Shown one piece after another: positions 3,426 through 51,497 of a stretch of DNA of 64,000 nucleotides. The translations under genes and the position numbers were made by a program. The number at the start of each line of letters is the position of its first letter. Position 1 is the stretch's first letter. The DNA is from Lophium mytilinum. Lineage: Eukaryota. Under the pieces are notes generated by a model. That model saw only the letters and a program-made list of their open reading frames with translations, ran no database searches and was not told the DNA's origin. The stretch lies in contig MU004181.1 in assembly GCA_010093605.1 (NCBI GenBank), forward strand, positions 2,356,001-2,420,000, written 5' to 3'.

Positions 3426-3662
3426 GGAGATATCGCTTCTTGAGTGTCTCTTTTGAAAGCTAGATATCACTGTCAGGAGTAGCCCCGCTAGCACGTAGGC
3501 GGTTGGTTAAGAAGTAGTCCAATAATTGCTGCATGGGCCTTGAAATTGCGTTGAAGTAGCTCTGAGTTTAGCCATTTGGATATACCACTGCATTAGTGTT
3601 ACTTTGGAAGCTATTTACTACTGTCAGGAGTAGCTCCGCTGGCAGGTAGCCGGCCAACCAGA
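3426..3662. repeat. Degenerate ~85-bp direct repeat, two copies ~151 bp apart
   Basis: Cores CTGTCAGGAGTAGCCCCGCTAGCACGTAGGCGG (from 3470) and CTGTCAGGAGTAGCTCCGCTGGCAGGTAGCCGG (from 3621), each preceded by a similar TTT(T/G)GAAAGCTA-like stretch. Confidence 0.75.
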
Positions 3663-23553: not shown

Positions 23554-26241
23554 ATGGCGCAAGATAAGCCCTTTTGGGCACCTGAAGGAAGCGCAGCCTG
23601 GCAGGGCATCCGATATTCGACGAAGTTCGACAATCCAATTGATACTGGCTACGACCTAGCTACTGATTTTGTCAACCATCAAGAGCCATACGTGGCTATA
23701 ATCGGTCCGAAACCGATTAGAAGGCTTTTACAGCTCCAGGTAGAGGCTGGTTTCAAGCGTAGGCACAATGATGGAGGGCCGTATTGTGGCTTGCACTCTC
23801 TTGTATGGGGTCTGTGGCCCATCTATCAGAAATTCAGGAAGTCTCCTCCAGACTTCAATCGCCTAGTCAATCTTCACGCAATGATCACACAGGACTCTTC
23901 ACCTCTGAAAGAAAAGCTGACTCCATCACAGCTAATGAACACATTAGCGGTACTTAACAAAGAGGACTCGATGCGAATTGGCCTTGCTTACTGCATCAGA
24001 GGTCAGTTCGTATCTACAGCATCAATTGACAGCAAACCAATCGCATATTCTCTTGATTGGTGCTATGAAAGCATCGGAGATACCCTCGCTGATCCTCACG
24101 ATTACGTCTGGCTTATCGGCGATAAATTCGAAGACTTTTATGAAGTCTCAGGCTTTGGACCCGAGAAAACAGCTTTTCCTACTAGACGCCCCTCAGCATC
24201 GCCGTATACTGCGAACAGTACGCCTGCGCCCCAGAATCCTGGCCCTCCACGAACCAACCCTTCATCCCAGTATCCAACATCTCGGCCTGTTAGGTCGATC
24301 GATCCAGCACAATCAGCAGGTACTCCCAGTCCGCAAAACGGACATTCCACTAATCGCCAGGCTAGCAATACAAACGCGCCGATGAACACAACAGCCGCAC
24401 CTTTTGGAACAGCAAGTTCCAACCAAGTAGCAGCTGACGCCGGTCCCCAACACGCCCAACTCACCACCCAGCGGGCGAGTATCATAGATTCCCCGATGAC
24501 CGACAGCGACGAGCAGTCTGCAAGCACGACTTCTTTCGAAAACCTCAATGACTTTCACAGTCGCGCTGCAGATGACGATTTGGGCGATCCTATGGATTTG
24601 TGCGAAACATGGCCTGGCTATCAGCCTTTCCCAACAGTCCACCACGAAAGTTTCGAAGACTTACAAGTCCCGCTAATTGATGATGAGGACTACGAAGAAC
24701 CTGTGGAGTTCAAACGGGCAAGGTTGTCACGATCCACTATGGGTCCTGTGGAATGTGCACCAAAGGCAGATGTACTTCTACCTTGGAACGAAATGGGTGA
24801 TATCACGCTAGCAGAGTTCTTGGTTTACTTCCCTAATCACGCGCTTTGCTGGCCCCGATTCGCGGCCCTCATCCGCGAAACCGGTTGGCAGCATATGTTC
24901 AGTAGGATTACAACACTCATTAACGTATCGCGACTCGGTCCCTCTAGATTTAGAAACCCAACCCTTGCTACAAGGTTCATATACCAGACTACCTGTGAGG
25001 AGCTTATGGAAGTAGCGATCAAGCAGCACAAGAACGATCCAAGGTACTCCATTGTTCAGCGCCATAACTCTGTGGGACATACCTATATCTTGGAGGACGG
25101 CGATTTCTCCGAGTTTAACGAACTGAAGTATATTCCTCAAGCCTGGCACCACGAACCACGTTTTGTGGAGGGTCTAGCCACCATTCCTCTTAGTGAAGCT
25201 GGCAATTGGGTCGAATACCATCCCTTCCCTGGCCGCGTTTTCACACAGCGGGTACTTCATGCGATGAACCCGCAGTTACATCCCAAGGCTCCGTTTGCGC
25301 CTCCAGACGACAATCCACCTCCTGCTTTGGTCGCTACTATGATAGAGGAGCACAAGCAAATTCGGCCCAAAAATTCATTGAAGAGCAAATGGAGGCCCAG
25401 TTACCCTCCTCAAGACGATCCAACTATGACATTGGACACATTAAAGCGTAATTATCCACTCGATATTGAAGGGGAAGCCTACCTGTGGGTCCTCCTCACT
25501 CATACTAATCAGCAGATCATTAGAGAAAACTTTGTACCGGCCCATATCTTCCAGAGATGGGGCGGAGATAGACATGGCGGGATGGAAAGGGGGCTAGGTG
25601 ACCTCAGAAACAGATTCGTGAAAGCCATCCGAGAAAGGGCTAAGAATCGGGGCAGTACCTTCCAAATCCAGAGACGCGACTATCTTGATGAGGTCAACGA
25701 GCATAAAAGCAGGCCCGAACCAATTGACGATAATGACCGAGACTTCCCTAAAGATGATCCTGACGAAAAGAAGCCGAAAACTCATGAAGGCGGAAACCCA
25801 CCTCCAGCACAGGGTGCCCAAGGAAACCCATCCAGACAAAACCCCCGGCAAAACCACCGAGAGGGCGGCGAAGCGCGACCGAGCGCCGCACCAGCTGCCC
25901 CAGGTGGTGCTACCCCGCACAGTACGACCCAACCCAGTGGCAGGGGCGCCAGATCAGGAAGCAGTGAAGGAGCAGGCCGAGGGCGAGGCCAACCCAGCTC
26001 GAGAGGGCCTAGGGGAGGCGGTGATAGTAGAGGAGGAGGCGGTTATGGGGGAAGAGGAGATGCTAATGGTGGAAGAGGAGGCGGCCATGGGGGAAGAGGA
26101 GACAGTAATAGTGGAAGAGGAGGCGGCCATGGGGGAAGAGGAGACAGTGGTGGTGGAAGAGGAGGCGGTCATGGTGGAAGAGATAGAGGGAGGGGTAGGG
26201 GAAGGGGCTACGTGGGTAGAGGACGTAGAGGGAACACCTAG
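23554..26241 (+). CDS. Uncharacterised 895-aa protein; N-terminal YCGLHSL motif, C-terminal RGG repeats
   Basis: Long intronless ORF with A-rich start context; function not recognisable. Confidence 0.8.
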   Translation: MAQDKPFWAPEGSAAWQGIRYSTKFDNPIDTGYDLATDFVNHQEPYVAIIGPKPIRRLLQLQVEAGFKRRHNDGGPYCGLHSLVWGLWPIYQKFRKSPPDFNRLVNLHAMITQDSSPLKEKLTPSQLMNTLAVLNKEDSMRIGLAYCIRGQFVSTASIDSKPIAYSLDWCYESIGDTLADPHDYVWLIGDKFEDFYEVSGFGPEKTAFPTRRPSASPYTANSTPAPQNPGPPRTNPSSQYPTSRPVRSIDPAQSAGTPSPQNGHSTNRQASNTNAPMNTTAAPFGTASSNQVAADAGPQHAQLTTQRASIIDSPMTDSDEQSASTTSFENLNDFHSRAADDDLGDPMDLCETWPGYQPFPTVHHESFEDLQVPLIDDEDYEEPVEFKRARLSRSTMGPVECAPKADVLLPWNEMGDITLAEFLVYFPNHALCWPRFAALIRETGWQHMFSRITTLINVSRLGPSRFRNPTLATRFIYQTTCEELMEVAIKQHKNDPRYSIVQRHNSVGHTYILEDGDFSEFNELKYIPQAWHHEPRFVEGLATIPLSEAGNWVEYHPFPGRVFTQRVLHAMNPQLHPKAPFAPPDDNPPPALVATMIEEHKQIRPKNSLKSKWRPSYPPQDDPTMTLDTLKRNYPLDIEGEAYLWVLLTHTNQQIIRENFVPAHIFQRWGGDRHGGMERGLGDLRNRFVKAIRERAKNRGSTFQIQRRDYLDEVNEHKSRPEPIDDNDRDFPKDDPDEKKPKTHEGGNPPPAQGAQGNPSRQNPRQNHREGGEARPSAAPAAPGGATPHSTTQPSGRGARSGSSEGAGRGRGQPSSRGPRGGGDSRGGGGYGGRGDANGGRGGGHGGRGDSNSGRGGGHGGRGDSGGGRGGGHGGRDRGRGRGRGYVGRGRRGNT
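26029..26181 (+). repeat. 42-nt coding tandem repeat (GGRGDxxGGRGGGH) about 3.5 copies
   Basis: Repeated GGGGGAAGAGGAGA...GTGGAAGAGGAGGCGGCCAT units in the C-terminus of the 895-aa ORF. Confidence 0.85.
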
Positions 26242-31660: not shown

Positions 31661-32321
31661 TGTTAGTGATTAGTGGCCGAAATTAACTCAATCATGTACC
31701 CTGATTCATAGCGTCACCTGTTACGCTGTTGAAAATAGCGCGAGAGGAAACGTGCTGACCGTCCACTTCATCATCATTAGCAAAAGACGGCAATGAGCTA
31801 TCCGCGTGTGACTGAGAGTGTACGCAATTAAGCAACAGCGGCATGGAAATGCATTCTCTATGCCTTCGATCATACTTGTCTTCTTAGACACCTTCGATTG
31901 GCATTGCAGCGAAGGGTTTAGTCCGGGACACGACGTCATGTCGAACTACCAGGACATGTTTCTGGAGGCACATGGCGACCACATGAGAACTCACTAGGAG
32001 CTACTCCAAAACATTCACCACAGCTCGAAAAGCCCGTTCCTACCCGCGGAAGTGCGTCCGTCATAGGGTTCCGGGCGGCGTTGTGAGTTCACCTGACAAC
32101 TTTATGTAAGCACGTTGCCAACTCACTGCAGACTGAAGGATACACTTATGCTCTTACATTGTAGTGAATGCCAAAGACTCACCGGATGCATATAAAGCCC
32201 TCCACTTCTCATCTTCGGAGCATATCAACACCCACCTTGACACCGCTACCCACACTCACCAGCAGAACCACCAACATCCCAACTCAACCACAAAAACCTT
32301 TCTCAGCACCAAAGCCAGAAG

Positions 32322-33179
32322 ATGCCACCATCATCGGCCCTCGACACGGCCATGTCGATCTCAACGTACGACCGCGGCCAGTTACGGCACGGCCCACGCC
32401 TAGACATCCTGACCGCCGAAGGCCAGATAGTTTTGCAAGGACTGAGCGCGAACCTGGTCACGCATTACTCTCCTACTGTACGTCAGCACATGAAGACGGT
32501 GGAAAACGAGAAGGGTCAACCGAAACATACTTTCTATCTCCGACAGGGCGCGGCAGAACTTCAAGGATTGAAGCAAGTCATCGACTGGATGGTGCTAAGC
32601 ATGACAACTACTCCAACAGCAATCAAAGCGCCGAAAGACCTCGTCAGCGCCATATTCTTGGCTCGAGCACTCTTCGCTCTCGGAATGCGAGTCGATGCAA
32701 TCAATGTCAACCGCTTTGTCGAAGACAAACTCCGAAAGAACCTGCACCCGATGCATGTTAAAGAACTCTGGGAGCAGGTTCCGCGCGATACGAAGTACGT
32801 GCATATGCTCGTCGAGAATCTTGTTCGCTTTGGCCGAGAGGACAAGCTTTGCAAGGAGACGATCATCTATATCCGATCCCATAACGAGCTATTCGACCGC
32901 TTAAAGAACCCGGAACTGAACGATAGCGAACTCGGCAAGAAAGAGACGCCTCAAGAATTCCGCGCTCGGAAGGATGCACTCGAGGGAAAGGGAAAAGAAA
33001 ACAACGGTGGTCGGATCCAGGCACAGAAGGCCCGAGTGGCTCGCGACAAGAGGGCGAAGGCCGAGAAGGCTGAGGCTGAGAGCTTCGAGAATGACCCGAA
33101 GAACCACGCAGGCGGTGCTTGGGAGAAAGAGCTCCTACCTGGTCAACAGACCCGTTCCGGATTCCAATATCGAGGATAG
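32322..33179 (+). CDS. Uncharacterised protein, possibly divergent BTB/POZ-like domain
   Basis: 285-aa intronless ORF, TATAAA at 32191; GPRLDI..VLQGLSANLVTHYSP and LKQVIDWM pattern resembles degenerate fungal BTB domains (weak). Confidence 0.7.
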   Translation: MPPSSALDTAMSISTYDRGQLRHGPRLDILTAEGQIVLQGLSANLVTHYSPTVRQHMKTVENEKGQPKHTFYLRQGAAELQGLKQVIDWMVLSMTTTPTAIKAPKDLVSAIFLARALFALGMRVDAINVNRFVEDKLRKNLHPMHVKELWEQVPRDTKYVHMLVENLVRFGREDKLCKETIIYIRSHNELFDRLKNPELNDSELGKKETPQEFRARKDALEGKGKENNGGRIQAQKARVARDKRAKAEKAEAESFENDPKNHAGGAWEKELLPGQQTRSGFQYRG

Positions 33180-33483
33180 GCAACCGATTTTCGACACCTG
33201 ATCATGGACAGTTAGCGCACGTTCGCGACCGTCTGGAATAGCTCACGAGCCTGTGTACGACCACATGAGCTGATACTCTAGAGCAGTAGACATTCTACTT
33301 CTCACACACAATGAAATCATCCTCTAACATTACTTTCCAATCGACCGACGTGATTCGCGAGCTTAAAGAGAACCATGTGACTGACCTCTGTATTCTCCGT
33401 GATGCCGTTCGATTTGCCATCAATGCAATATGTGTTGCTGCGGGCGTCTAGGATGGTTCGTATGAAAGCAAACTCCAACCCCG

Positions 33484-35513
33484 TCAACGGCTGTTCCACT
33501 CCCAAACTTCTTCCAGCTGGGACCTAGCCGCTTTAGTAGGCCATCCATGCCGAGTTTCAGTTTTGATCAGCATTTCTCGAAGCTGTGACTGATCTTGACG
33601 ATTTGTGAAACGATCTCCCACTGATGGACGTTAGTGCTTGAATTTTGATGATACAGAATTCGAGTATACTGACCAAGCGCTATCGCAAAGCACGCGACCA
33701 AGCTAGCGGGAAATGCCCTCTCGTTAGAAAGGGCAACGCCAACAAGAGTGCGGACGTCCTCCTGAACTTGAATCTGAAATCTGATTTAGTGACTAGTTGG
33801 TTGAGGGATTGATCTGGTGGCAGGCGTACATCTACTTCCATCTTGGCTTTCTTATGCGCCGGCCCGAGTTGTGGAATGGTGGGATTGTGGACTACGAGAA
33901 GAACACGACCTAGGATGTTGTATTGCCGCCCCATGACTACCTCCGCATTAGCTTAGAATTAGCATTAAGAGTATGAGTAACTTACCGTGCGCATCGGCGT
34001 GGCAACGGATATCCGGAAAATTACGACCACTACCATCTCGATCTCGTTGATGGAAAAACTCGATGAATGAGTCGGGCCTCCGCCTCCTCCATGACTCATT
34101 CTCCTCCATAAGTCGGTTGAATCGTGATACAGAATGCTTTCCCTCGCCGAACGCAAAGTGTATGACGTCTCCAACGTGGGCTATCGTTCGGTCAGCCCAC
34201 GTGGAGTCATTAGCAGGTTCAATGGATCTGTCTGCTTCAAAGATATGCAGTTGAAAGGGTCTCTGGGTCATCAAAGATATCCAAAGCTCTTGCCGAAAGG
34301 CTGCCCAATAAATTGCTTGTCGAAAGCTCGTGTCGACTGGATTCAGATCATATCGCCGCTGGACTGCTCGAAGGATAGCGTGGGTGCCAAACAAATGACT
34401 TCGAGGATCATCACCAGTTATTGGGATATTGAGTTCCTCAAGAAGTCTGAGAATGATCGTAGCTGCAAGAAGAGATTCGTCATTGATTGCGACGCTGTCA
34501 TTTAAGGCTGGAATGAGTGTCTGGAGGCAGATTTGGTAATAGCGGTCCGCTACGAATGTGTCGAATGACGATGTTCGACTTAGGTGGCGAGCTGATAAAG
34601 CCATTATAGCGTTGAAGAGTGTAATATTAGTTCTAGCTCTTTGAGGAACTTCAAACGTGAAGTGCTTCTGGGCATCGCACATATCAAACTAGTCTTCTGG
34701 TCAGTCATAGCACATATGTTTCTACTCAAAGGTGATGTAGGCGTAATACGTACGAAAAGAGCAACATGGTCAATATAATGACCCATCAACATTGCTTCTT
34801 GATCATTTTCAAGAGGCCAAAATCCAGCAGGGGTAGTACTGTGGTGGCCACTTGGTGGACGGCTCCTTGCAAGGTGCTCATCGCTACCGTGACGTGCTAT
34901 TACATTCGCTGGGGAGTTTGAGATGGACGAAGGCGTTCTACTCAGCACGTCTAGCCGGATAGGGGACTCCGAATTGAGTAAAGACGAAACCGGAATGACT
35001 TCAGCAGATGTGACCGTGCCAACGGGGCTGTCACTAAAAGCTTGAAATCCGAGGGGTGGAGACTCTCTGCTTGGTGCCACGAATCCAGGCTCCTCAACCC
35101 CATGTCAGCGCAACTCAAAACTGGAGTCCCAAGCTACTGACATATTGCGACCGGACGTCGTCAGTCTCATCGAAGAAATCGACTCAACTTCATGTCAGCG
35201 TAGCCCAAACTGGAGTCCCAAGCTACTGACTGGTTCGTGGAAGCGCGATCCATTTCTGATCTTTCTTGAATGCCTTTTGAATGGAAGATCGCCTGATTCT
35301 TAGGCCGGTCTCGTAAACACAGCGCTCGCCTGCCTTCTGACATTGATTGCACTTTGGCAACTTGCCATTGCCTGATATTAGGAACTGTTAGCTTCAAAAT
35401 AGCCTAGGTGTGACGACTTTTTCTTACATTTGTGATGACGTACCCGACAACGATTGCTGAAAGAGTCAGCTGCAATAGAGCATCACCGGACGGGTTAACA
35501 CTGACCATGGCAT
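33484..35513 (-). CDS. Zn(II)2Cys6 transcription factor with fungal-specific TF domain; about 9 exons
   Basis: Hand-spliced: MPC|NRCRVRHHKC|NGKLPKCNQCQKAGERCVY...QKWIALPRTI|DFFDETDDVRSQY|EPGF...EAMLMGHYIDHVALF|FDMCD...LAATIILRLLEE...RHGWPT; introns 35457-35505, 35372-35427, 35183-35230, 35093-35141, 34689-34753, 33937-33985, one near 33770-33830, 33621-33673. Confidence 0.9.
35093..35230 (-). repeat. Two near-identical spliceosomal introns (35183-35230 and 35093-35141) flanking a 41-nt exon
   Basis: GTCAGTAGCTTGGGACTCCAGTTT-GGGCTACGCTGACATGAAGTTGAG versus GTCAGTAGCTTGGGACTCCAGTTTTGAGTTGCGCTGACATGGGGTTGAG; 43/49 identical. Confidence 0.88.
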
Positions 35514-35807
35514 CACGATCAAAGGATGAAGTTGGAGCGGGCGGCGTGAATTGCCCTTTGGACGACGAAAGAGATGAATCACGGCTATGGGGATGTCATG
35601 TACGTTGAAAAGTGCGGGGAGACCGAGCCAATGATCGCTGTGCTAACGCAATCGTGTCTTAGCGAGGAAATCCGACCCGCATGCAGGGACTGCATGGCGA
35701 TTGATAAGAAGCTCCGATAATCTATAAATGTATATGTAACATTCAAGAGTGCGAAGTATCGGTAGTGGTATTAAGTTGTAAAGTTCAGATTTCTTTCGCC
35801 TTTCGCT

Positions 35808-36937
35808 ATGCCTCACGCAGAGCAAGTCCCACGCACCCCTGAGTCGCTCTTCGTGAACGACGGTCCTCTAGCAGCGGACCAGGTAGGGTCACTACGAGAG
35901 TCAAACCCAGACCTCCCTCTGGAAGAGCTTCGTCGAAGATATGAAGAAGACGGGTATCTGTTCCTCAAAGGCCTGCTCCCCCGCCAAGACGTCCTCAAAG
36001 CCAGGGAAGAATACTTCAAACTCCTCTCCCCAAGCGGAGTTCTGAAGGATGGCACGGCCCCCGTTGATGGCATATTCGACGACCAGAACGATCCAGGCGA
36101 CTACCCTGGCATTGGTGCCGGCGCTGCAGATGGCAACGGCAAACCTGGCGGACAGAAAGCGGAGAAGTTCGTCGACCTCGCATTGCAAGCTCACTACGAG
36201 ACTTGGTACAAGGAGGACTTTTGCAAGCACCCAGTACTCCGGAATATGATTGCGAAGTTGACAGGATGGGGGGAAAGTACGCTTGGGGTCCGGAGAAGCT
36301 TGCTGCGGAACAATACGCCTGGAAACAAGGCGATTGGGGTTCACTACGACCAGATATTCCTCCGCCATGGCGAGCCAACCAGCGTCACAGCGTGGGTGCC
36401 CATGGGGGATGTGTCTTTGAGTGGTGGGGGTCTCATATACCTTGAGAAAGGTATGGTACGCTGCAAACATCCACACGGACGGTGTTGACTTTTACAGGAT
36501 ACACACTTGGAAGAGAAGTCGAAGACACCTTCACAAAGAAGGCTAGAGAATGTGGCATGTCAGAAGAGGAGGCCAGAAATGCCTTCAATCAGAACATGCT
36601 ATCAACAGGGTTGCTGGCCGATGGTCCTGCGGAATACGCACGCCGGTTCGATCGTCGATGGTTGGTAACTGCGTATGAGGCTGGAGATGTCGTGCTACAT
36701 ACGCCATTTGCGGTAGGTTCGAGAATTGGTTGCACGGAGTTGCACTGACGAGAGATCAGATACACGCTTCGACCATCAACCAGGATCCTCAGAATGTGAT
36801 TAGACTCGGGACTGATCTACGTTTCGTGGACTCCAGTCGGCCATGGGACACTGTATGTTTGCAAACCTTCCATCTCGTTAGAAGCTAATCGATCACAGCG
36901 ATGGGACAAAGATTACTCCTTCAATGATGGCGTCTGA
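35808..36937 (+). CDS. Phytanoyl-CoA dioxygenase (PhyH)-family Fe(II)/2-oxoglutarate oxygenase; 4 exons
   Basis: RRYEEDGYLFLKGLL, HYD iron motif (VHYDQIFLR), TAWVPMGD, YEAGDVVLH, IHASTIN..IRLGTDLRF. Confidence 0.92.
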
Positions 36938-37188
36938 ATACCGAAAGAGCAATATGAATTCTAGGTCTGAGTCATGCTGTTATACTCCGTACTTTTGCTC
37001 CCCGGGGATGAGAGCTCGCTTTCTAGTTAAATCAAGTAAAAGCCAGGTCGTAGTAATATGCAAACGCTCTAGACTCTAAGCATTTCTAACGCCGTTGAGC
37101 TGCAAATGGGTATCCGCTCCTCACCAAATAGTATCGCCTTGTTCCATAATCCAAAAGTACCGCCTTCATTCCAATGGGCCAAACAAAC

Positions 37189-50605: not shown

Positions 50606-51497
50606 ATGCGTTCCTCCATTGCCATTGCCGCCGCTATTGTCGGTGCCGTCAACGCTGCCCCTAACGGTGGCTACGGATACGGTGGATACGGTGCCGAGTC
50701 CTCCTCCGTGCCGGTTGTCTACTCTACCTCGTTAGTCACCGTCTACTCGTGCGGTCCCGAAGTCACGAACTGCCCGGCTAAGTACCACTCCAGCACGCCT
50801 GCTCCGTACGTCGCCTCCTCCACCGAGGCCCCCGTCTACAGCGCCCCCGTCTACACCCCGGCTCCCTACAGCAGCCCGGCCCCGTACTCTGCCCCGGCCC
50901 CTTACTCGGCCCCGGCTCCGTACTCTGCCCCGGCTCCCTACAGCGCACCCGCCCCGGTGTACTCTGCCCCGGCCTACAACGTCTCGTCGGCTGCTCCCTA
51001 CGGCTACATCACCAAGACGGTGTCTTCCACCGCCGTCTACGCTGTGACCACCGCTGGCACCACCACCGAGACCACTGAGGTCTACGTCTACACCACCGTG
51101 TGCCCTGCCACCGAGACTGAGGTCTACCCCACCGAGACCCCCTCTCCCTCCGCCCCGGAGTCTTCCGTCTACTACCCAGTCGAGAGCACCTCCACTTCCT
51201 GCACTGAGTCCAGCACCGTGACCGTTGTCGTCCCGGTCTCGTCCGCCTACTACCCAACTGGCACCGGTGGTGCTCCCTACCCGTCCGGTGCCCCATCCGG
51301 CACTGGTGTCTGGGGAACTGCCTCCAGCTCCGGGTAAGCATTCCTCTCACTCCAGTATCATAATCACTACTAACAAGTTCTCTAGCTACGGTGCTCCCTC
51401 CGCCACCTACCCACCTGAGTTCACTGGCGCTGCCAGCCACGCCAACGCTGGTCTGGCCGTTGCCGGTCTCGGTGCCTTCGCCGCTCTTTTCTTGTAA
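50606..51497 (+). CDS. GPI-anchored Ser/Thr/Pro-rich cell-wall protein; 2 exons
   Basis: Signal peptide MRSSIAIAAAIVGAVNA, SCGPEVTNCP, YTTVCP, C-terminal FTGAASHANAGLAVAGLGAFAALFL; strong codon bias. Confidence 0.92.
50828..50977 (+). repeat. Coding tandem repeat of APAPYS / APVYS
   Basis: About 8 units of 15-18 nt with synonymous variation. Confidence 0.85.

Follow-up and report, generated by a model that had tools for sequence, protein, structure and literature searches.

A Near-Identical Intron Pair in a Fungal Zn2Cys6 Transcription Factor Gene: Probable Gain of One Intron by Copying of Its Neighbour

Introduction

A fungal gene for a Zn2Cys6 transcription factor contains two near-identical introns separated by a 41-nt exon, and the second of them is very probably a lineage-specific gain made by copying its neighbour. 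The origin of new spliceosomal introns is debated, and few gained introns are traceable to a source. Here, the source and the copy lie side by side with base-exact boundaries. Both undergo splicing, and no relative that is readable at the new position has an intron there. The case adds resolution in having confirmation from RNA, an ancestral donor position, a recipient position that is absent in 23 of 23 orthologues, and a very short distance between the two. Since the donor has been retained 41 nt away, the locus places a concrete constraint on models of intron transposition, and it argues against the simplest route from spliced mRNA through cDNA to recombination. The locus also lends itself to experiments as a naturally occurring substrate. 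Should the 48-nt sequence prove to have further copies spreading through the genome, it would count as an introner, unusually short and of ordinary intron size.

Throughout, the window is the whole stretch of DNA that was analysed, 64 kb in length, and all coordinates are positions within it. The two introns are referred to as twin A and twin B in the order of transcription. Contigs assembled from the read sets of runs X1 to X4 were compared with the window, and the splice joints below are those of the X3 contig.

Structure of the Twin Introns

The features of the locus are as follows.

33484..35513, minus strand: coding region of a Zn2Cys6/Fungal_trans_2 transcription factor, with nine coding exons and eight introns by the X3 joints
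35231..35371, minus strand: upstream exon, carrying the second half of the Zn2Cys6 cluster and a linker, and ending in ...WIALPRT plus the first base of an Ile codon
35183..35230, minus strand: twin A, a GT..AG spliceosomal intron of 48 nt in phase 1; X3 joins 35182 to 35231
35142..35182, minus strand: mini-exon of 41 nt, encoding DFFDETDDVRSQY and retained in the spliced X3 contig
35093..35141, minus strand: twin B, a GT..AG spliceosomal intron of 49 nt in phase 0; the X3 joint is 35092/35142
34754..35092, minus strand: downstream exon of 339 nt, starting with EPGFVAPS and containing a variable linker toward a conserved LLNSESP stretch
35457-35505, 35372-35427, 34689-34753, 33937-33985, 33774-33829 and 33621-33673, minus strand: the other six introns of the CDS, GT..AG, by the X3 joints

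Read on the minus strand, an exon ending in CCACGAACCA is followed by 48 nt (35230-35183), the 41-nt exon (35182-35142), 49 nt (35141-35093) and an exon beginning with GAGCCTGG. The twins are in direct orientation with a start-to-start spacing of 89-90 nt. In a global alignment, they are identical at 43 of 49 columns, with five mismatches and one one-base indel, and there is no difference between them in the first 24 nt. Both start with GTCAGT and end with TTGAG, and a likely branch site, GCTGAC, is located 10-11 nt before the 3' end of each. Both therefore look like U2-type introns, which have GT..AG termini and a CTRAC-like branch site near the 3' end. The similarity extends exactly from GT to AG and is confined to the introns. 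The exon flanks, compared over 41 nt on each side, are unrelated (6/41 identical upstream and 12/41 downstream), and the bases adjoining the twins differ (A vs. T upstream and T vs. G downstream). Apart from one ambiguous G, no direct repeats, filler or microhomology were found at the twin junctions, and no inverted repeat was reported in 34500-36000.

Within the window, the two sequences have no other relatives. With up to three mismatches allowed, the 24-mer of the twins has two sites in the 64 kb, which are the twins themselves, and none of 100 dinucleotide shuffles had two or more matches. Searched with an nhmmer profile built from the pair, the window yields the twins alone (E = 2e-14 and 6e-14), the next match having an E value of 1.1. 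A third copy was not found in the 64-kb window by the 24-mer, repeat or nhmmer profile searches. The twin pair is confirmed as real to the base and beyond chance.

The differences between the twins are not spread evenly. All six of them fall at aligned columns 22-43, in the 3' part. A run of 21-24 initial columns free of differences has a probability of 0.013-0.027, so simple neutral decay after a single copy event fails as an explanation. The clustering of differences toward the 3' end suggests either a later partial gene conversion or a constraint on the 5' half of the twins.

The window contains a few other repeats. A 51-nt direct repeat at 3452-3502 and 3603-3653 (82% identical, 151 nt start-to-start) lies downstream of a membrane-protein-like ORF. 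It was considered as a second intron pair and rejected, there being no long ORFs there and nothing intronic-looking. A coding-looking tandem array with a 21-nt period occupies 26011-26220; it is purine-rich, has at least seven units and would be Gly-rich if translated. Another coding-looking array, CCCCGGC-rich with an 18-nt period, is found at 50856-50956.

Splicing and Contig Support

Run X3 comes from another study and carries a different organism label. It yields one 6,142-nt contig over 32000-37000 with zero mismatches and 12 joints. Since all 12 are minus-strand GT..AG joints, X3 must contain spliced RNA. The contig excises 35183-35230 and 35093-35141 and keeps the 41-nt exon. The cut for twin B is ambiguous by 1 nt, and the GT..AG placement is 35141..35093. 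Because X3 belongs to another study, it is independent evidence for a 41-nt exon between two joints. No intron-retaining X3 contig was found, and the depth over the twin introns is fully explained by the single spliced contig; being at the contig level, this evidence establishes that the spliced form exists and says nothing on the efficiency of splicing.

At the DNA level, a contig of X1 covers the whole stretch without differences, and a contig of X2 covers the twin pair. X1 and X2 are DNA from one sample that may be the source of the window, and hence they are not independent of it. X4 (a moss metagenome, small share) covers 33670-33919 only and is uninformative on the twins.

The X3 contig extends far past the transcription factor CDS on both sides (32000-37000, minus strand). 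It is unspliced through 35506-36866, where it is antisense to a plus-strand PhyH-like ORF at 35775-36488 (PF05721, E = 1.7e-4). On the other side, it covers 32158-33197, where a plus-strand ORF of 312 aa without a Pfam match lies antisense to it. Further minus-strand GT..AG introns in this contig are at 36867-36916, 33198-33385 (188 nt), 32473-32530 and 32093-32157. Long UTRs, antisense transcription or the joining of separate transcripts during assembly could each account for the overhang.

The Host Gene

The spliced frame is open for 534 aa, from an ATG at 35513 to a stop at 33484-33486. Its translation has an N-terminal cluster of the form C-X2-C-X6-C-X6-C-X2-C-X6-C, and the large exon matches PF11951 (E = 1.4e-7). 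The exon at 35231-35370, searched alone, has no Pfam match because an intron splits the Zn2Cys6 cluster. The relatives found by a search with the large exon are Pleosporales proteins of 64-70% identity, several of which have both PF00172 and PF11951, and the best full-length relative is 70% identical. The mini-exon peptide DFFDETDDVRSQY aligns with a conserved orthologue motif, QFLDESxEIRSQY, and the junction region of the spliced protein aligns with full-length orthologues.

Twin A follows CDS nt 178 and is in phase 1, and twin B follows CDS nt 219 and is in phase 0. By the sequence and the ORF list, retention of twin A brings in a TAG, and retention of twin B brings in a TGA. Since the mini-exon is 41 nt long, skipping it shifts the frame. 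With both twins now spliced out normally, the mRNA codes for an intact transcription factor.

Much of this structure had been proposed in an earlier note on the same DNA. The alignment agrees with its description of 35230-35183 and 35141-35093 as segments 43/49 identical from GT to AG between unrelated flanks, and the CDS positions bear out its phases of 1 and 0. The open frame that it had seen on removing both segments runs to 534 aa, and the consequences that it had given for retention (TAG and TGA) and for skipping of the 41-nt exon (a shift of frame) are as described above. It had pointed to RNA junctions and to the DNA as checks. The X3 contig removes both segments at the predicted boundaries, and two copies are present in the DNA contigs of X1 and X2, which may be the window's source.

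Most orthologues have a linker after RSQY that exceeds that of the window protein (34754-35092) by about 14 residues. Linker length varies among the orthologues, so that the difference need not mean a deletion alongside the insertion of twin B.

Ancestral and Gained Positions

Metagenome contigs were scanned with an alignment of the large exon, and 44 loci were returned. The mini-exon motif was located in 21 loci by pattern search and in two more, L007 and L026, which have variant motifs, by ORF layout. The resulting 23 orthologous loci comprise 17 distinct sequences on Pleosporales-like metagenome contigs; this count leaves out seven loci that end before the site and six weak matches (L039-L044).

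The orthologues give a uniform picture. A phase-1 intron of 48-52 nt is present at the twin A position in all 23 loci, each of which is readable at both sites, and it always interrupts an Ile codon (A|TN) immediately upstream of the motif. An intron at the twin B position is present in none of the 23, and in every one of them the frame stays open for more than 40 codons beyond RSQY into a conserved ..TVLS.. stretch. Tblastn segment breaks in the orthologues occur near codons 13, 57-60 and 186, and none occurs at codon 73. The distant homologues also have no intron at the twin B position (0/7). Five of the distant homologues (L025, L027, L029, L030 and L031) have an intron at neither site. In L036 the A site alone is occupied, by an intron with a GC donor, and L038 seems to share this arrangement; L032 is partial and open across B. 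With an intron at A in 23/23 orthologues and at B in 0/23 orthologues and 0/7 distant homologues, it is clear that the twin A position is ancestral and the twin B position is lineage-specific. It is from position only that we infer the direction of copying, from A to B.

Truncated orthologue models independently back the twin A position. Many of them start with ..VQFLDES because read-through of the end of the intron (..AG|TC) gives that peptide.

A quick maximum-likelihood tree built from the large exon places the window gene as sister to the Pleosporales orthologue clade as a whole (SH-aLRT 98). Since it is sister to all of the sampled orthologues, the gain of twin B is dated only to some time after that split. 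The earlier note had called the gain recent, and that holds in a relative sense only, the copies differing at 6 of 49 columns. It had also named an alignment of orthologous genes as a check, and here the first position proved common to 23/23 and the second to 0/23 and to 0/7 distant homologues. Its central proposal, the gain of an intron by precise copying between an adjacent donor and recipient in one gene, is supported by the RNA, orthologue and DNA-contig evidence.

Two further observations were made on the orthologues. About half of the deposited models (P0001-P0038) are without the Zn2Cys6 domain and start inside the intron at the twin A position (M..VQFLDES); the short 5' exons of this transcription factor gene family are often mis-annotated. 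The orthologues also differ in which downstream introns are kept (codons 186, 421, 456 and 490), L005 and L013 differing from L014, L015, L024 and L036, and L005 aligns unbroken from residue 60 to 520. This pattern of alignment suggests that several 3' introns may have been lost in some Pleosporales lineages.

Probable Mechanism of the Copying

Our reading is that twin B is an exact copy of the ancestral twin A, made in this lineage, and that spliceosome-mediated intron transposition is its most likely route; we hold this with slightly better than even confidence. The excised twin A intron would have been reverse-spliced into a nearby intron-less site, the recipient being either a transcript of the same gene or the transcribed DNA strand. 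To become fixed in the genome, it would then have been reverse-transcribed and brought in by recombination or repair along a short tract. The new copy would have entered between two codons, directly behind the conserved RSQY motif, 41 nt downstream of its source and with its orientation unchanged.

The unit copied is exactly the excised intron, on the same strand and in the same transcription unit. Because the copy extends from GT to AG without target-site duplication, filler or flank homology, reverse splicing fits best. It is from the exact boundaries alone that we infer what would be an RNA-based mechanism. Counting against reverse splicing, the sequence at the point of insertion, ..TAT|GAG.., does not conform to the classic MAG|G proto-splice site, and precise copies made at the DNA level would be enriched as well if selection favours products that splice in frame. 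Of the two routes offered in the earlier note, the ILE-like one (that of an introner-like element) is not supported, given the ordinary length, the insignificant fold and the lack of a third copy in the window, whereas reverse splicing is retained as the presumed and best-fitting one.

The classical route, in which mRNA is converted to cDNA and then recombined into the gene, tends to erase neighbouring introns. Here, the donor twin A, 41 nt away, and all six of the other introns have been retained, which excludes a cDNA of the spliced message acting through a long recombination tract. To reconcile RNA-based copying with the retained introns, one must assume that the conversion tract was very short, that the recipient RNA was unspliced or that the intron went directly into DNA. 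Insertion into transcribed DNA is discussed in portions of PMC10996645 and PMC8469720.

The locus could hold both the donor and the product of an intron re-inserted into its own transcript or locus and be a base-exact natural footprint of intra-gene reverse splicing, a tentative reading that we would place just short of an even chance. The perfect conservation of the 5' half may point to a sequence that favours re-insertion or to ongoing conversion between the copies.

Alternative Explanations

The twins could instead have come from a local copy made at the DNA level, which we consider unlikely, though a serious contender. A double-strand break or a replication template switch at B would have led to the copying of 48 nt from 89 nt upstream, and only a product that matched the intron boundaries and was spliceable in frame would have survived. 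The distance of 89-90 nt between donor and recipient and their direct orientation are as expected for local template switching, and such a process requires neither reverse transcription nor loss of neighbouring introns. Break repair is among the mechanisms of intron gain listed in the part of PMC3443670 that treats them, and end-joining models proposed for seamless intron duplication in Hypoxylaceae appear in a section of PMC8469720. However, the 5' junction is without microhomology (A vs. T), the 3' side has at most one base, and short direct repeats and filler are absent. There is no reason for a DNA process to match both splice sites to the base. It is doubtful, and would come as a surprise, that the twins belong to a dispersed family of near-identical introns, either introner-like or low-copy, such that twin B and perhaps the present sequence of twin A came from a third copy elsewhere. 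In favour of it, the fungus is related to the Dothideomycetes, the class for which introner-like elements are described in the portion of PMC3609843 that deals with them. Most suspected Mycosphaerella reverse-splicing events are at previously intronic positions in the account excerpted from PMC3443670, and so twin A could have been overwritten. The twins also fold lowest of the eight CDS introns, at -13.6 and -15.3 kcal/mol. Nevertheless, the z-scores of these folds are just -1.07 and -1.41, and in length the twins (48-49 nt) compare with the shortest of the gene's other introns (49-65 nt). The 64-kb window is without a third copy, and two independent insertions 41 nt apart would be a large coincidence.

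The identical 24 nt at the 5' end, beside a diverged 3' part, resemble a partial conversion tract, and two old introns could have been homogenised by gene conversion in this lineage. We regard this as highly improbable. The earlier note had named it as the case that would speak against a gain, and the absence of the B position in relatives (an intron in 0/23 orthologues and 0/7 distant homologues) removes it in that form. It would call for the arrival of an unrelated intron at B, followed by a conversion bounded exactly by its GT and AG; alternatively, loss everywhere else followed by homogenisation would take several losses plus an exactly bounded conversion. The idea of an assembly artefact, or of an unspliced repeat in a dead gene, can draw on the DNA runs X1 and X2, which as a possible source of the window are not independent of it. 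Its probability is nonetheless negligible, since the RNA contig from a different study has the 41-nt exon between two exact joints and the 534-aa frame is open and conserved with respect to orthologues.

Several other candidates were tried and rejected. By eye, the twins are faintly like the orthologue exon after RSQY, as would be expected from intronisation of exon sequence, but the alignment of twin A is no better than with shuffles. In local alignments of twin A to 11 distinct orthologue exons, 40-260 of 300 shuffles were as good. Twin A also scores weakly against the orthologous intron-A regions (19-244 of 300 shuffles as good). A driving role for RNA structure was set aside, the twin hairpins being not significant (z = -1.07 and -1.41). 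A transposon-type introner or DNA transposon was rejected on the lack of a direct repeat at the junctions and of an inverted repeat in 34500-36000, and intron gain by tandem duplication was rejected on the unrelated flanking exons. A stwintron, in which one intron is nested in another, does not fit either, as the 41-nt exon between the twins stays in the mRNA. The "twin introns" of the earlier note's title are therefore not to be taken in the stwintron sense, the introns not being nested.

Comparison with Known Intron Classes

For same-gene intron duplications in fungi, the underlying study is reportedly that of van der Burgt et al. 2012. The near-identical introns of fungi are divided into three classes, same-gene duplications, low-copy introns and introner-like elements (ILEs), in the classification section of Collemare et al. 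2013 (PMC3609843). The ILEs as characterised there are, like the twins, near-identical, seamless and in sense orientation, and they occur in a related fungal group. However, by the same section of PMC3609843, ILEs have tens to hundreds of copies in unrelated genes, and the twins are two copies in the 64-kb window. ILEs are also about twice the regular intron length in that account, as opposed to 48-49 nt for the twins in a gene with other introns of 49-65 nt. Their predicted folds are given there as significantly more stable, while those of the twins have z-scores of -1.07 and -1.41, with 29/200 and 17/200 shuffles having predicted folds as good. The hairpin predicted for the twins is mostly a pairing of the 5' splice site GUCAG with the branch-site CUGAC.

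The sister (stw)introns and symmetrical "cropped" introns of Hypoxylaceae, in the parts of PMC8469720 that present them, resemble the twins in being low-copy and seamless, in occurring in an ascomycete, in lacking target-site duplication and in having a predicted hairpin. As presented there, they have long terminal inverted repeats and are in different genes; the twins have neither of these features, and their hairpin is insignificant. Tandem duplication of an AGGT-containing exon segment, from the list of mechanisms in PMC3443670, also repeats sequence within one gene. By that route the new intron is made of exon, whereas here it is the intron itself that is repeated.

Intron transposition by reverse splicing is a model reviewed in a section of PMC3443670, and the reversibility of the spliceosome and two captured yeast events are cited in a passage of PMC10996645. 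As in the twins, the model has an exact GT-AG copy on the same strand, at a transcribed intron-less site and without target-site duplication. It is a mechanism and not a family, and the donor kept 41 nt away limits which of its variants are applicable.

The closest class is that of same-gene duplications, for which the relevant section of PMC3609843 counts 82 introns in 24 species, half of them segmental. The non-segmental ones are described there as near-identical introns in one gene with unduplicated flanking exons and with ordinary intron length and folding energy, as in the twins. For the class, the authors of PMC3609843 proposed, in the same section, transposition within the same transcript. 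Table 2 of PMC3609843 places almost none of the same-gene duplications at single-gain positions, whereas twin B is at a lineage-specific position. The class is further defined by having no copies in unrelated genes, and in the 64-kb window examined for the twins there are none. In comparison with this class, the polarity of the twins is resolved, both are seen in RNA, and they are 41 nt apart. The twin pair fits the non-segmental same-gene duplication class on every testable feature. It is a known, uncommon kind of event and not a new kind of element.
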